DNA from: Raja brachyura
Lineage: Eukaryota
Assembly: GCA_963514005.1 (NCBI GenBank)
Contig: OY740795.1
Coordinates: 1,488,001 to 1,552,000, forward strand
DNA: 64,000 bases
Reading direction: 5' to 3'
Shown: piece by piece, positions 19,746 to 45,746 of the stretch
How the letters are laid out: each line of letters starts with the position of its first letter
How positions within the stretch are numbered: position 1 is the first letter of the stretch
The notes under the pieces: model-generated
Told to the model about the DNA's origin: nothing
What the model saw: only the letters and a program-made list of their open reading frames with translations
Database searches by the model: none
Position numbers and translations under genes: made by a program

Positions 19746-20656
19746 GTGTAAATGCTTCAGAACACAGAACATTCTCTAGATTGTAAAACAAATTGATGCT
19801 GTTTGGTTCAAAAACAAAGGTTCACAATAATGAATGATTTGAACATAATGAGAGTATGTTGTACATGGTTCTAAATGTGGGCTTTAGTACACCAGGTTTT
19901 CTTTGTGTCTTGTATTAAATTTCAACATTCAGAAATCCTTAGTGTCAATACCTTTTATTCTCCATTGTGAATTCACTGATGCTCGTAGTTTAGATTCTGA
20001 ATCAAGTTGCTTGGTGTTTTTGACGTGAGTTTTGCTGCACAAAAGAACTGCTTTTTCCCAGTTCACAGGCGGAGGAACTGCTCTAATGTCCTGCCCTCCT
20101 CCACCAGCCGACAGGGTTTGTCCAACAAGTGCTTTGCTCCGTTAACCAGGGCTGCTGGTGTCTCAGTGAATGTCAGTGGTCATTCACAGAGCACCTTTCA
20201 TGGTGTCCCCGAGCCCTTCACAGACAGTGAGGCATGTTCACAGTAGAGCCGTGTTGTGAAGGAGGGACTGTGGATCCACTCTGCTCACAGCAGAATCGTA
20301 AACCGCAGGTGAGGGGGAAATGTTGTCCGAGACTCCACAGATACACTGATCCAATGGACGGGCATCAGGCTGCAATCAGACCCCAGTTTAATTCCGCAAC
20401 AACTGTGGGATTTAAACTCTGCTCATATTCTGGGACAGATTGGACCTGTGTCAGATTCTCTTTTGTTAGTAACCTGGATTTTGTACACAAATCCACAGTA
20501 ATGATGGCCTCTCAGTTTCCCTGCTGTCCCTCAGCAGAGGAGATCTGTTGTCCTTACCCAGTTGAGCCGACTTCTGACCCCTGACCCAGCAATGCAATTG
20601 GCACTAAATGCCCCCAGGATGGCAACCCAGGCGGGCAGTTTATTGCCCCTCCTCAC

Positions 20657-21549
20657 CCGGCACCCAGCTCCTCGCCCCGGCACCCAGCTCCTCGCCCCGG
20701 CACCCAGCTCCTCGCCCCGGCACCCAGCTCCTCGCCCCGGCACCCAGCTCCTCGCCCCGGCACCCAGCTCCTCGCCCCGGCACCCAGCTCCTCGCCCCGG
20801 CACCCAGCTCCTCGCCCCGGCACCCAGCTCCTCGCCCCGGCACCCAGCTCCTCGCCCCGGCACCCAGCTCCTCGCCCCGGCACCCAGCTCCTCGCCCCGG
20901 CACCCAGCTCCCCGCCCCGGCACCCAGCTCCCCGCCCCGGCACCCAGCTCCCCGCCCCGGCACCCAGCTCCCCGCCCCGGCACCCAGCTCCCCGCCCCGG
21001 CACCCAGCTCCCCGCCCCGGCACCCAGCTCCCCGCCCCGGCACCCAGCTCCCCGCCCCGGCGCCCAGCTCCCCGCCCCGGCACCCAGCTCCCCACCCCGG
21101 CACCCAGCTCCCCACCCCGGCACCCAGCTCCCCACCCCGGCACCCAGCTCCCCACCCCAGCACCCAGCTCCCCACCCCAGCACCCAGCTCCCCACCCCAG
21201 CACCCAGCTCCCCACCCCAGCACCCAGCTCCCCACCCCAGCACCCAGCTCCCCACCCCAGCACCCAGCTCCCCACCCCAGCACCCAGCTCCCCACCCCAG
21301 CACCCAGCTCCCCACCCCGGCACCCAGCTCCCCACCCCGGCACCCAGCTAAACCCACCCCAGCACCCAGCTAAACCCACCCCATCACCCAGCTAAACCCA
21401 CCCCAGCACCCAGCTAAACCCACCCCAGCACCCAGCTAAACCCACCCCAGCACCCAGCTAAACCCACCCCAGCACCCAGCTCCCCGCCCCATCACCCAAC
21501 TCCCCAACCCAGCACCCAGCTGCTTCACCAGCTCCTCGCCCCAGCACCC
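20657..21549. repeat. 20/22-bp AGCT-containing minisatellite in the JH-CH1 intron
   Basis: 34 units of cacccagctcc(t/c)c(g/a)cccc(g/a)g (20661-21340), then 6 units of cacccagctaaacccaccccag (21341-21472), then degenerate units. Confidence 0.98.
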
Positions 21550-23877: not shown

Positions 23878-24186
23878 AGGTTGAGACCTTGCCTTCAGTC
23901 CACATCACCTCTTCCTGCAACACAGAATCTGACCAAGAGATCAGCATCCTCTGTCTGGTCAAGGACTACGAGGCTGAGATCATCAGTCAGACATGGTCCA
24001 CCAGCAGTGGGGACATCACCACTGGAATCACAAAGTACCCACCAGTGTTGGGACAAAACGACAAGTACATAATGAGCAGCTTGCTGCGAGTCCCTGTGGC
24101 AGATTGGAACAGGAATAACGTCTACTACTGCAAGGCAGGATACAAGCCGGACAACATGGTGCTAACGGAGTTCCCGAAGCCTCAAG
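23878..24186 (+). CDS. IgW: IgW CH1 exon
   Basis: Acceptor atttcag. (E)VETLPSVHITSSCNTESDQEISILCLVKDYEAEIISQTW...SSLLRVPVADWNRNNVYYCKAGYKPDNMVLTEFPKPQ. Donor G|gttagt. Confidence 0.95.
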
Positions 24187-25272: not shown

Positions 25273-25572
25273 CTCCACAGCTCATCCCCCTTGTTCCATC
25301 CCCGGAGGTTCTCCACAATCAAACAACTGCTGTCCTGGGCTGCATGATATCCGGATTCTTCCCTGACAATATTAAAGTTTCCTGGAACAAATCTGGACGT
25401 AATCAAGCGGGCATTGTTCTCCCATCTACTCGGGGAACTAACGGTAGAGTTGAAACAGTTGCTTACCTGCCGTTGCCTGTGGAGGAATGGACCAACAAAC
25501 AGGAATATACTTGTGAAGTGACCCACGCGCCTTCCGGCTTCAGCGACAGGATCAACATGAGATATCAAGAGG
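25273..25572 (+). CDS. IgW: IgW CH2 exon
   Basis: Acceptor gttacag. (A)PQLIPLVPSPEVLHNQTTAVLGCMISGFFPDNIKVSW...EEWTNKQEYTCEVTHAPSGFSDRINMRYQE. Donor G|gtgagt. Confidence 0.95.
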
Positions 25573-31473: not shown

Positions 31474-31776
31474 AATTGTCCGTCTTCATTCAAAACCCTG
31501 GCATGAAAGAGATTTGGATCAACAAGACCGCTACGCTGGTGTGTTCAGTGATCTGTAGTGATCCGAGCCAGGTCCATCTCACCTGGAAGGTGGGAGGAAC
31601 GGGGAGAAGCGGAGGAGTCGTGACCCGTACACCGAGCCATGAAGGCACCCGAAACGCAGTGATCAGTGAACTGCGGACCAGCGTGGAGGAGTGGACCAGC
31701 GGGGTGGAGTTTGTGTGCTTCGCCCAACAATCCCCATCATCCTCACCAGTGTCAGCGCGGACCAACCATAACAAAG
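31474..31776 (+). CDS. IgW: IgW CH3 exon (long form)
   Basis: Acceptor gatccacag. (E)LSVFIQNPGMKEIWINKTATLVCSVICSDPSQVHLTW...EEWTSGVEFVCFAQQSPSSSPVSARTNHNK. Donor G|gtgggc. Confidence 0.92.
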
Positions 31777-33349: not shown

Positions 33350-33667
33350 TTGAGCCAAAGAAACCTGAAGTCAGACTGCTGCTTCCAGCACACGAAGAGA
33401 CCGAGCGTAGCCACAAGGTCACCCTGGAGTGTGTGGTCTCTGGATTCTACCCAGACCTCATCAACGTCACTTGGAGTAAAGACGGTGCCCTGATCTCCAA
33501 CAACACCAGCGCTGCACCAACTGCCCTGGAGCAGGGGGGCACTTTCAGTGCCAGCCACTTCCTGACCACGAGTACCGAGGATTGGAAGTCTGGCTCACGC
33601 TTCAATTGTACAGTGCATCATGGCGCCTCCAACACCATCATCACGAAGGATGTGAAGAACATCCAAG
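33350..33667 (+). CDS. IgW: IgW CH4 exon
   Basis: Acceptor ctattccag. (V)EPKKPEVRLLLPAHEETERSHKVTLECVVSGFYPDLINVTW...EDWKSGSRFNCTVHHGASNTIITKDVKNIQ. Donor G|gtaggc. Confidence 0.94.
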
Positions 33668-34663: not shown

Positions 34664-34984
34664 ATGAATGTTCAGTTACCCGCCCCTCGGTCTCTTTAAG
34701 CAAACCTTCCTTCGAAGAGATCTGGATCAACAAGACAGCCACCATTCTGTGCAAGGTGGTTCACGGTGATTTAGAGGGATTCAGGGTAACCTGGCAAGTG
34801 AATGGAATGAAGAGAGAAGACGGGGTGACAACTCGTGGCGCAGAGAGGATCGGAGGTGCAGACACCATCACCAGCGGACTGACGGTCCCCGCTGCAGAGT
34901 GGAACAGTGGGGATCTGTACACCTGTGTTGTGGAGGACAAGAGTTTGCCAACACCGGAGAGGAGATCCTTGGAGAAGCCGACAG
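34664..34984 (+). CDS. IgW: IgW CH5 exon
   Basis: Acceptor tttctcccag. (D)ECSVTRPSVSLSKPSFEEIWINKTATILCKVVHGDLEGFRVTW...EWNSGDLYTCVVEDKSLPTPERRSLEKPT. Donor G|gtacgt. Confidence 0.93.
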
Positions 34985-36063: not shown

Positions 36064-36449
36064 ATGGAGTTGAGAGTCGACCTCAAGTCTACCTCCTCCC
36101 CCCTTCATTGGATGAGGTGGAGACGGATGAGACGGCCACCTTGACGTGCCTGGTCACCAGATTCTCTCCTGCAGACATCTATGTGGCCTGGATGGCCAAC
36201 GACGCCCTTCTGAAGACGGGGATCGTGAACCAGCCCGTGACCAAGGACACCAGGAATGGGTTGAACACCATGACCAGTCAGTTGAAGGTTTCTCCAGAGG
36301 AGTGGAACAGTGGCACCACCTTCTCCTGTGTTGTGGGGCACGGCTCCATCACAAGCAGCCTGTTCAGAAGCATCAATAAATCTCACAGCAAACCCACCCT
36401 GGTCAATGTCTCACTTGTTCTGACTGATAGCTTTAAATCTTGTGTGTAA
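36064..36449 (+). CDS. IgW: IgW CH6 exon with contiguous IgM-like secretory tailpiece
   Basis: Acceptor tgttcccag. (D)GVESRPQVYLLPPSLDEVETDETATLTCLVTRFSPADIYVAW...EEWNSGTTFSCVVGHG...INKSHSKPTLVNVSLVLTDSFKSCV*, with an NVS sequon and penultimate Cys. Confidence 0.95.
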
Positions 36450-36790: not shown

Positions 36791-38541
36791 GGTGGCAGTA
36801 CATGAGTAAGTTGGGATGTGAGGTGCGCACGTTCTAGGAGAAGCACATTCTGGGAGAAATATGTGTTGTTGGATCAATGTGTCCAAAACCTTCCACCATT
36901 GGGTGTTCTGACAGCCACGCCTGGACCAGTTGAAGACTAATGGACAGAGATTGATTGTGGTCGTTGGTCGTTAACTCCATTATCACTGTGTCATGCGACT
37001 GTCAGAGTGACACAAGATGAACTGATTGGACCATGGTCTTTCCTAACCCAGCTGTGACAATGTACCTGATGCAAGCTCCCACAGGTCAAACCAAATCTGG
37101 CCAGATCTCCTGCGTCAGGTAGTCCTTGCTTTCTCCCTCTTTCCCCTCCCCTTCCCAGCTCTCCCACAGCCCACCCGTGTTTAGCTGTTTTGTTTCAGGC
37201 TAAATATTAGAGCAGAACTCTGGTGGTCATGTCATGCCATTGCTGACATCTACCTGAGAAGCACCTCCTTAAAGCCTCATCCCAAAGACAGCAGCATTCA
37301 TGAGGTGACATTGTTCACCACTGAGCCACACATGACATCTGTGTCGAACAAGGGGGATGGTTGTTTGAGGAGTCTCTGTCCTCAGTGGGTGTGCATGGAT
37401 AATGTTGAATACAAGAGACAACTCATCATTGGTAACTCTTCTATTCCAATGTTACAATTAAACATCTGCCTGTCGGTGCTGAAAGTAAATGTTCTTGAAT
37501 CTGCTGCCTCGTGCTTTCAAGCTTCTTGTATCTTCTGGAGAGGGGAGAAGAGACAATGACTGGGATGTGAGGGTTCCTCGATGATGTTGGCTGCTTTCCT
37601 GAGGCAGCGTGAAGTGTCGATGGTGGAAGGAGTATTGGTCTAGGGTGGGGGATGCAATGCCCATTGTGTGGGCCGAGGGTTGTTTAGTTTAGTTTGTTGT
37701 CACATAGACCGAGGCACAGCGAAAATGCTTTTTGTTGCGTGCTAACCAGTCAGCGGAAAGACTATATAATTACAATTAAGCCTTCCACAGTATACAGATA
37801 CATGATAAAGGGAATAACATTTTGTGCAAGGTAATGTCAGATTAAACATAGTCCGAGGGTCTCCAGTGAGGTAGATGATAGCTCAGGACTGCGCTCTAGT
37901 TGGTGAGGGGATGAATATGTTCAGTTGCTTGATAACAGCTGGGAAGAAACTGTCCCTGAATCTGGGGGTGTGCGTTTTCACACTTCTACGCCTTTTGCCT
38001 GATGGGAGAGGGGAGAAGAGGGAGTGGCCAGGATGCGACAGGTCCATGATTATGCTGCTGGCCTTGCAGAGGCGGCGTGAGATATAAATGGAGTCAGTGG
38101 AAGGGAGGTTAGTTTGTGTGGTGATCTGGGCTGCAACCACAATTCTCTGCCAGTTCTTGGATGGAGCTGTTCCCAAACCATGATGTGATGCATCCTGATA
38201 AAATGCTTTCTATGGTGCACTAAAATTAAATACCAATAAAGAATTTAACAGCATGTAGTTTTATTTATGTTAGTGTTATTGTACATGTATAAGTGTTGTG
38301 GAGAATGTATAGTGTTCGATTATAAGAAATGTGAGTGTGCGGATAATTTCAAGGGTCAAACTCTGTATAAATGCTAAGTGGAATTTCAGAGCAGCAGGTA
38401 ACTGGGACTGTGCTGCTCTCCTTATGCATGAGTCAATAAAGTGAGTCTGGAAAATGAATGCAAGTCGTCAGAGTCCAGTTGATCGGTGACGACCACACCA
38501 GACCTTGTCCGGTTTGTAAGCTTCCTAGTTCTCATCTGCAG

Positions 38542-39736
38542 AATTGTCCGTCTTTATCCAAAACCCCTCCACCAGTCATTGAAAGTAGGCATGCAGGTAC
38601 AGCAGGCAGTGAAGAAAGCCAATGGTATGTTAGCTTTCATAGCAAAAGGATTTGAGTATAGGAGCAGGGAGGTTCTACTTCAGTTGTATAGGGTCTTGGT
38701 GAGGCCACACCTGGAGTATTGCTTACAGTTCTGGTCTCCAAATCTGAGGAAAGACATTATTGCCATAGAGGGAGTGCAGAGAAGGTTCACCAGACTGATT
38801 CCTGGGATGTCAGGACTGTCTTATGAAGAAAGACTGGATAGACTCGGTTTATACTCTCTAGAATTTAGGAGATTGAGAGGAGATCTTATAGAAACTTACA
38901 AAATTCTTAAGGGGTTGGACAGGCTAGATGCAGGAAGATTGTTCCCGATGTTGGGGAGGTCCAGGACAAGGGGTCACAGCTTAAGGATAAGGGGGAAATC
39001 CTTTAGGACCGAGATGAGAAGGACTTTTTTCACACAGAGAGTGGTGGGTCTCTGGAACTCTCTGCCACAGAGGGTAGTTGAGGCCAGTTCATTGGTTATA
39101 TTTAAGAGGGAGTTAGATGTGGCCCTTGTGGCTAAGGGGATCAGGGGGTATGGAGAAAAGGCAGGTACGGGATACTGAGTTGGATGATCAGCCATGGCGG
39201 TGCAGGCTCAAAGGGCCGAATGGCCTACTCCTGCACCTAATTTCTATGTTTCTATGTTTCTTCCTGGTGGCAATGGTGAGATGACTGTGTGGCCAGGATG
39301 GTGTGGGTCCTTGATGATGTTGACTGCCTTTTTGAGGCAGCGACTATGATAGATCCCTTCGACGGTGGGGAGGTCAATGCTGGCGACGAACTGGGCAGTG
39401 CTCACAACTTTTTGTGGTATTTTTTCGCTCCTGGACATTCAAGTTGCCGAACCAGGCCACGGTGCAACCGGGACTAGGCCACAATGCTATATATTTCTGC
39501 GCTTTCACAACTTCAGTTTATTCCAAAACACCTCAGTGGCCAGGACACTGAGAAGACCAAGCCTGCTGTTCTTCAAAATTAGTGTCACTGGGTCAGCCCA
39601 CTCATTGTTGTCGGCCCACTGTGTGTGGCATCTCAGACTAGTTGTCTTGCTGCTACTTTGAAGAGTGGGGTCAAGTATTTGTATTTGTACAATTGTTTGT
39701 TGACACTGGAAAAGAGGTCCATCAGAAAGCCCATTG
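38542..39736 (+). pseudogene. Relic CH3/CH5-type constant exon split by CR1 (38570-39260) and Rex1/Babar (~39260-39470) insertions
   Basis: The 5' piece cag|aattgtccgtctttatccaaaaccc is 23/25 identical to the CH3 start. The 3' piece reads ...AATLKSGVKYLY..NCLLTLEKRSIRKPI versus CH5 AAEWNSGDLYTC...SLPTPERRSLEKPT. Confidence 0.7.
38570..39260 (+). mobile_element. CR1 LINE 3' fragment
   Basis: HQSLKVGMQVQQAVKKANGML... through the tttctatg tail. Confidence 0.92.
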
Positions 39737-40729
39737 TGTGGATGGAGCTGGGTACAAGCGTGTTGGCATTGGAGTGATCATGGAGTCACAGATTTATACA
39801 GTACGGTAACAGGCCCTTCGGCTCAGCTTGTCTTTGCCAACCAAGGTGCCCGATCTACACTAGTCGCGTCTCCCCATGTTTGGCCCAAATCACTAATCAT
39901 CTCATGTTCATAAGTGAGAGATGCAGAATTAGGCCATTCGGCCCATCAAGTCTACTCTGCCATTGAATCATGGCTGATTTATCTCTCCTTCCTAACCCCA
40001 TTCTCCCCTTGACACCAATACTAATCAAGAATCTATCTATCTCTGCTATAAAAATACCCATTGAGTGGGCCTGCACAGCCTTCTGTGGCAATGAATTCCT
40101 CAGATTCACTACACTGTGACTAAAGAAATTCCTCCTCATCTTCCTAGAGGAACATCCTTTAATTCTGAGATTATGGTCCTCGACTCTCCCACCAGTGGAA
40201 TCATCCTCTCTACATCCACTCTATCCAGGCCTTTCACTATTGGTCCTGTCCATGTACCTGTACATATAGCTTTTAAACATTGTTATAGTTTCTGCCTCAA
40301 CTACCTCTTCCCGCAGCACATTCCATGCACCCAGTGCCCTCAGTGTGAAAAAGTTGCCCCTCAGATTCCCATTAAATCTGTCCCCCCTCAGCTTAACCCC
40401 ATGTCCTCTGGTTCTTGATTGCCCTACCATGGGTAAAGGATCCTGGACATCTGTGTGCCTAACCATCTCCTGCACTCTGTCAAATCTGGTTATTTCCTCT
40501 TGTGATATTGGGCCGATAGAAACAAGACCATGTTGTGGTTAGTTGAACAGTTGGTACTCTTGAGGAAAGGGAATGTCTCCTCAGAAAGTCACTGCTATTC
40601 AGTGTCTCGTGCAGATTGGTGTTCCAGGGTTCACATCGGTGGACATTACTAAGCCAGGGAGAGAACGTCAACTGAGAATGAAAATGGATTCCAGACCAAA
40701 TCCATATCAAACATAACTTTTTGTTTAAA

Positions 40730-45606: not shown

Positions 45607-45746
45607 CCGGCACAGACTGGACAGGAGAGGAAGGGACGGAGGAACCGGGGGACTTGGATGGAGATGAAAATGTGTTGGCAGTTGCTGTCTTCGCCATCCT
45701 GTTCATTATCAGTTTCCTCTACAGTACCTTCGTCACCGTTGTCAAG
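45607..45746 (+). CDS. IgW: IgW transmembrane exon TM1
   Basis: Pyrimidine tract then ctgaag| (an in-frame alternative acceptor cacag| lies at 45616). (A)GTDWTGEEGTEEPGDLDGDENVLAVAVFAILFIISFLYSTFVTVVK has an acidic spacer and the CART motif LF..S..YST.VT. Phase-0 donor AAG|gtaacg. Confidence 0.93.

Follow-up and report, generated by a model that had tools for sequence, protein, structure and literature searches.

A 31-nt exon stub in a skate IgW cluster marks the place of a pair of constant exons, C7 and C8, which in sister loci lie between the secretory tail and the transmembrane (TM) exon. The account favoured here with good confidence is that the stub is the start of C7, that the pair was lost at this locus and is intact in five sister loci, where it likely feeds the membrane form, and that a CR1-type LINE is the likely cause of the loss. 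The cluster was analyzed in a stretch of 64,000 nt from Raja brachyura (the window). A preliminary description had taken the region for one old seventh exon of about 295 nt, split by two LINE insertions; this single-fossil reading was wrong, yet it pointed to a real and wider feature.

The IgW cluster and the C7-C8 exons of its paralogs

The window holds one IgW cluster, with V near 15.8 kb and with V, CH1-CH6, the tail, and TM1 all open. On the + strand, CH1 (23878..24186; open frame, AG/GT ends) is followed by CH2 (25273..25572), CH3 (31474..31776; the paralog of C7, 64% at the amino acid level), CH4 (33350..33667; the paralog of C8, 72-74%), CH5 (34664..34984; the paralog of a decayed C5 remnant), CH6 with the long secretory tail (36064..36449), and an intact TM1 (45607..45746). 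The six C1-set exons and the long tail are homologous to IgW and place the cluster there. Identity of CH1-CH6 per domain reached 83-94% with a Leucoraja model, skates providing the closest named proteins, and 50-68% with nurse shark IgNARC/IgW. TM1 shares a motif with named IgW TM proteins, which makes it an IgW-type TM exon, and exons of this type were found in seven loci of the skate genome, the window and six paralogs. At what we take to be the position of the IgM-type internal GT donor, CH6 of the window reads GC. Between V and CH1, a G-rich tandem repeat (20534-21391) stays open in a number of reverse frames.

When the genome was searched with the flank of the stub, copies in tandem turned up at a spacing of about 2 kb. 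In five of the seven IgW loci, a C3-like exon (C7) and then a C4-like exon (C8) are intact between the secretory tail and TM, in one to four pairs per locus. One pair follows the tail on contig C8 and one, together with a C7 stub, on contig C9; the two loci of contig C10 carry three and four, and contig C283 carries four. Extra C exons 3' of the CH6 tail, perhaps for a membrane form, had been suggested in the preliminary description, which named a look for intact counterparts in other clusters as a check; such counterparts exist in these five loci, and what had to be given up is the single split exon. The remaining paralog (C1553:18043-29393) is degenerate, with a stop in CH4, a partial C8, and a TM exon, and no C7, CH5, or CH6 was found within the 50 kb examined.

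All 17 C7-C8 pairs of the five loci have AG/GT ends and are free of stops, and C7 measures 303 nt in 16 of 17 copies. The other copy (C10:5311971-5312271) has 302 nt and a shifted donor frame, either a real lesion or an assembly error. Intact C7 and C8 passed the Pfam C1-set cut-off of 21 bits with 35.4 and 74.7, respectively. Two further pairs lie between CH4 and CH5 in the four-pair C10 locus (C10:5008251-5011038) and in C283 (C283:92452-95553), flanked by a repeated piece of CH4 intron of about 195 nt. These internal pairs would permit a 10-domain secreted IgW; the parts of the reviews available to us list at most 8 domains. C283 is 99.7% identical over 32 kb to C10:4988000-5020000, the four-pair locus, and is likely its second haplotype or an unplaced duplicate. 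Because of this identity C283 was left uncounted, and four loci with intact pairs are regarded as independent. An element of about 340 nt with terminal inverted repeats (L089:6430-6766) occurs in the C7-C8 intron and is highly repeated in sequencing runs.

The stub, the deletion, and the C5-derived remnant

The intron flank with the intact C7 acceptor (38305..38541, + strand) is collinear with the paralogs at about 92%, and its last 123 nt score 92 against the C7 flank and -17 against the CH3 flank. The stub (38542..38572, +) comprises the first 31 nt of the 303-nt C3-like exon, 30 of them matching C7 at the contig C8 locus and 25 matching CH3. Stub and flank are thus nearer to C7, a batoid paralog of C3, than to CH3. 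The intact acceptor (38521-38541) in front of ELSVFIQNPS and the start with 23 of 25 nt identical to CH3, both reported in the preliminary description, were confirmed. Splicing into the stub leads to a stop after 13 codons.

At the deletion junction lies a 5'-truncated CR1-type LINE of 692 nt (38570..39261, +) with a 201-codon open frame, a complete repeat-bearing 3' tail, and one 5' truncation. Its family is presumably CR1, judged from the end of ORF2 and the tail; Pfam gave no relevant match for the element. It is followed by the remnant of an older LINE (39258..39469, - strand), which is longer in all six paralogous loci and for which Pfam names no family. Both LINEs had been recognized previously, the older one as an insertion into the exon; in the paralogs it lies in the intron after C8, outside any exon. 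A C7 stub of 20 nt also occurs in the contig C9 locus (C9:82583070-82583091; L006:1040-1061), after its one intact pair. It joins the same older LINE directly, without CR1, and breaks 11 nt from the break in the window.

The window and its paralogs are collinear as far as 38572, and collinearity resumes at 39258. Between these anchors the paralogs hold 1437-7505 nt and the window holds the 692-nt element, which stands in place of at least 1.4 kb that contained C7 beyond the stub and the whole of C8. Microhomology amounts to 3 nt with C7 at the 5' end of the element and 4 nt with the older LINE at its 3' end, and a target-site duplication, sought at the element's junctions, was not found. Insertion-mediated deletion by the retrotransposons L1, Alu, and SVA is marked by a 5'-truncated element, microhomology, lack of a target-site duplication, and loss of target DNA. 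All of these features were found in the window, together with a single truncated element; unlike the L1, Alu, and SVA cases, the element is of CR1 type and sits in an antibody gene of a cartilaginous fish. Taken alone, the broken stub is a transposon lesion of an ordinary kind.

The junctions argue for one CR1 integration as the origin of the C7-C8 loss in the window, which we consider quite probable. Recombination between two CR1 copies, or break repair capturing a piece of CR1, appears rather unlikely. It gains some weight from the contig C9 deletion, which meets the older LINE 20 nt into C7 without CR1, so that the region also breaks by other routes; however, no CR1 lies at either junction in any of the six paralogs, and the element combines its one 5' truncation with a complete 3' tail.

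The sequence beyond the older LINE (the 3' piece) is present at full length in all seven loci with 91-100% identity by genome search. Upstream of the older LINE and the 3' piece, five of the six paralogs have a C4-like exon and the sixth has a short C7 stub. Among 26 comparisons (13 targets on both strands, with shuffle controls), two were clear of the rest: CH5 at z 6.7 and the CH4 intron at z 6.5, with none of 500 shuffles reaching the score in either case. Positions 39477..39578 (+) align to 103-210 of the CH4 intron (score 129, 0 of 500 shuffles) and hold the reading ATMLY, in which the first Cys had been seen as TAT. This claim is unsupported because ATMLY aligns to the CH4 intron and because five paralogs read otherwise at this position (DTMLN, DTMLN, DSLLN, DTMQH, and GTMVY).

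Positions 39649..39764 (+) are a decayed C5 copy, consisting of the last third of the exon and the donor flank, with a Cys to Tyr change, two missing codons, and a lost donor. Against CH5 with its donor flank the copy scores 131 (0 of 1000 shuffles), the top of 1066 window tiles. The likeness to C5 that had been noted at the 3' end holds for this part, including TAT at the second Cys position, and fails for ATMLY. In all 18 copy-by-target tests of the remnant, at most 4 of 1000 shuffles reached the score. A profile of 21 C5 sequences matched the remnant in six of six copies (E 0.002-0.02, C283 left out), and the window's own remnant had an E of 0.02 with the C5 HMM. Pfam gave no match for the window remnant, while nhmmer found the remnant in five paralogs (E 0.004-0.28) and not in the window at E<=10. 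In two models of Pristis (sawfish), a short pre-TM exon aligns to the remnant without gaps (16 of 24 identical, E 2e-7) and matches the C5 profile with E 8e-8 and 7e-7; the alignment places the same two-codon loss in skate and sawfish. With significant similarity, collinearity with C5, and occurrence in another order, the remnant is a C5-derived pseudo-exon. The Pristis models (XP_051882954-6), which belong to two sawfish genes and splice it as a short exon to TM, may represent a sterile transcript.

Two other assignments of the 3' piece were rejected. As part of C7 it reached z 2.1 (21 of 500 shuffles) and a best E of 0.3 with the C3/C7 HMM, and on the reverse strand stricter scoring gave no match (best z 2.7).

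Given the C5 evidence, C7, C8, intron, and dead C5 follow one another in the same sequence as C3, C4, intron, and C5. The anatomy is very probably that of a recently lost C7-C8 pair, of which 31 nt persist as the stub, and of a C5-derived remnant that is distinct and far older. Beside this anatomy, a single old seventh exon of about 295 nt with two LINE insertions is hardly credible. Both ends do derive from Ig exons, which that model would require, but the stub belongs to C7 and the 3' piece to the CH4 intron and the end of C5, with C8 between C7 and the C5 copy in the five loci with intact C7. The middle of the joined sequence aligns to intron DNA, and the intact 303-nt C7 of the paralogs refutes a single exon. 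The agreement of about 295 nt with one Ig exon length is a coincidence because of the far greater length held by the paralogs at the CR1 site. Alignment of the joined sequence to CH1-CH6 gave z of at most 2.5 with loose gap costs, a scoring that is uninformative.

Age, constraint, and probable use of the C7-C8 pair

When 71 rows of C3-like domains were placed in a tree, the C7 domains of skates, Pristis, Mobula, and Narcine grouped as one clade (99/96), which spans four batoid orders and was kept in a 27-row subset tree rooted on sharks (98/96). None of the domains of three Hemitrygon proteins fell inside this clade in the 71-row tree. A clade of skate C3 with skate C7, which would represent a skate-only duplication, was rejected (p-AU 0.0017). 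In the C4/C8 trees, skate C4 and C8 grouped together (96/92; 80/86), for which gene conversion is a possible cause; a single C8 clade was absent from these trees, yet it was not rejected (p-AU 0.18). dN/dS was 0.51 for C7 versus CH3 and 0.40 for C8 versus CH4. Among 10 of the 17 copies (those of C283 and the 302-nt copy left out), pN/pS was 0.35 for C7 and 0.39 for C8, both enclosed by the range of CH3-CH6 (0.17-0.57).

Dissection of 44 proteins into domains yielded seven predicted batoid gene models with a C7-C8-TM end, namely four Mobula birostris isoforms and models of M. hypostoma, Pristis, and Rhinoraja. The fifth of the five dissected M. birostris isoforms has the same upstream domains and ends with C5-C6-tail, and all Mobula models that have a C7-clade domain end in TM. 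Two Narcine models end with C7-C8 and a non-TM tail, and secreted models of Rhinoraja and Pristis carry internal C7-C8 pairs. Shark TM forms have ordinary C3-C4 (Mustelus, Squalus AES92979, and Chiloscyllium); the domains of Mustelus X7 are identical to those of X3. The path from C6 to C7 through read-through sequence in the Pristis and Rhinoraja models looks artefactual. With tail read-through doubtful and GC in CH6, splicing from C2 or C4 is the likely natural way of reaching C7.

Six matches were found for short proteins with C7-C8-TM, none of them a skate transcript. In one contig of run X1, from a relative (234 nt, depth about 5), the last 68 nt of C8, up to the donor, are joined to the first 166 nt of C7. 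Provided that the run is RNA, which is a guess, this single spliced contig from one of four runs shows spliced use of the C8 donor and the C7 acceptor in a relative, although internal copies may be its source. Contigs of X2 and X3 continue from C8 into the intron, X5 had no contig on C8, and a C8-to-TM junction was absent from all four runs. As no C8-to-TM transcript was seen, we infer a membrane-form role of C7-C8 from position and predicted gene models, which make it fairly probable.

An ancestor of skates and rays may have copied C3-C4-C5 to between the CH6 tail and TM. Alignment shows that the C5 copy decayed to its last third. C7 and C8 have kept open frames and canonical splice sites and have increased to one to four tandem pairs, and one locus, along with its near-duplicate, has a further two pairs between CH4 and CH5. 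Transcripts are predicted to end with C5-C6-tail (secreted) or, spliced from C2 or C4, with (C7-C8)n-TM (membrane). In the window locus, one CR1 integration, judging from the junctions, would have removed at least 1.4 kb, which would leave C2-TM and C4-TM, the layout of sharks, as the sole ways of making membrane IgW, and use of the surviving acceptor would run into the early stop. The stalk of batoid membrane IgW and the Fc of the secreted form would then be encoded by mutually exclusive exon pairs, (C7-C8)n-TM versus C5-C6-tail, with a receptor whose C domains number from 4 to over 10 depending on the locus and with single loci, such as the one in the window, returning to the layout of sharks through transposon-linked deletion. 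We rate the chances of this wider proposal as about even.

The post-tail C7-C8 could also be a reservoir or a by-product of tandem duplication, serving mainly as internal copies of long secreted forms or in a secreted form that terminates by read-through after C8, with membrane IgW made as C2-TM or C4-TM as in sharks; this seems improbable to us, though worth weighing. The internal pairs upstream of CH5 in C10 and C283 and in the Rhinoraja and Pristis secreted models would fit such a use, as would the ordinary C3-C4 in TM forms of Mustelus and Squalus, the window locus, which keeps CH1-6 and TM open without the pair, and the X2 and X3 contigs, whose reading from C8 into the intron is consistent with a read-through form. 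However, in three of the four chromosomal loci with intact pairs every pair lies after the tail and is still open with low pN/pS, and the C7-clade domain of Mobula is confined to TM-ending models. If the batoid-wide pair is indeed reachable only by the membrane form, the constant domains of the B-cell receptor would differ from those of the secreted antibody. The exact C7 and C8 junctions are now given for RT-PCR, and the window locus offers a natural loss-of-cassette control. Gene models labelled "uncharacterized" or "titin-like", or reading through the tail, can be corrected accordingly.

Comparison with known antibody genes

What IgW and IgD do is described as an open question in the accessible parts of two reviews (PMC4279169, PMC6795676). 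According to the sections available, IgW has 6-8 C exons (PMC4279169, PMC5192425, PMC6795676), and nurse shark IgW has 2 or 4 C domains in its membrane forms and 2, 4, 6, or 8 in its secreted forms (PMC4279169, PMC5192425). A batoid post-tail pair was not described in the portions seen of PMC12227049 and of two preprints, and literature searches on IgW brought up no paper on it; an earlier description may exist among the primary IgW papers, and RefSeq models already contain the C7-C8 exons. The skate loci share with elasmobranch IgW clusters the V, CH1-CH6, long secretory tail, and TM, and a diversity generated by exon duplication and splicing. Unlike known elasmobranch IgW, they carry C3/C4-like pairs 3' of the tail exon, from 0 to 4 per locus and up to 6 pairs in all, and the predicted skate membrane forms would exceed the 4 C domains of shark membrane IgW.

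Tandem two-exon repeats are reported for sturgeon and teleost IgD and for shark UrIg2 (PMC5192425, PMC12227049, as far as available). The skate pairs are likewise two-exon units that are tandemly duplicated and homogenised, but IgD and UrIg2 are different genes, and in the parts of these sources at hand no secretory tail exon is described upstream of their repeats. In coelacanth IgW1, as given in the available part of PMC5192425, after the secreted exons come four tandem C3-C4-C5 units and then TM. The skate loci share with it tandem C3-C4(-C5) copies between the secreted end and TM, whereas their repeats comprise C3-C4 alone, the C5 copy being dead. This likeness is probably convergent, since both trees of batoids and sharks put the copies inside batoids with sharks outside. 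C7-C8 is a variation on the known exon-duplication plasticity of IgW and IgD, and it is coelacanth IgW1 that it resembles.
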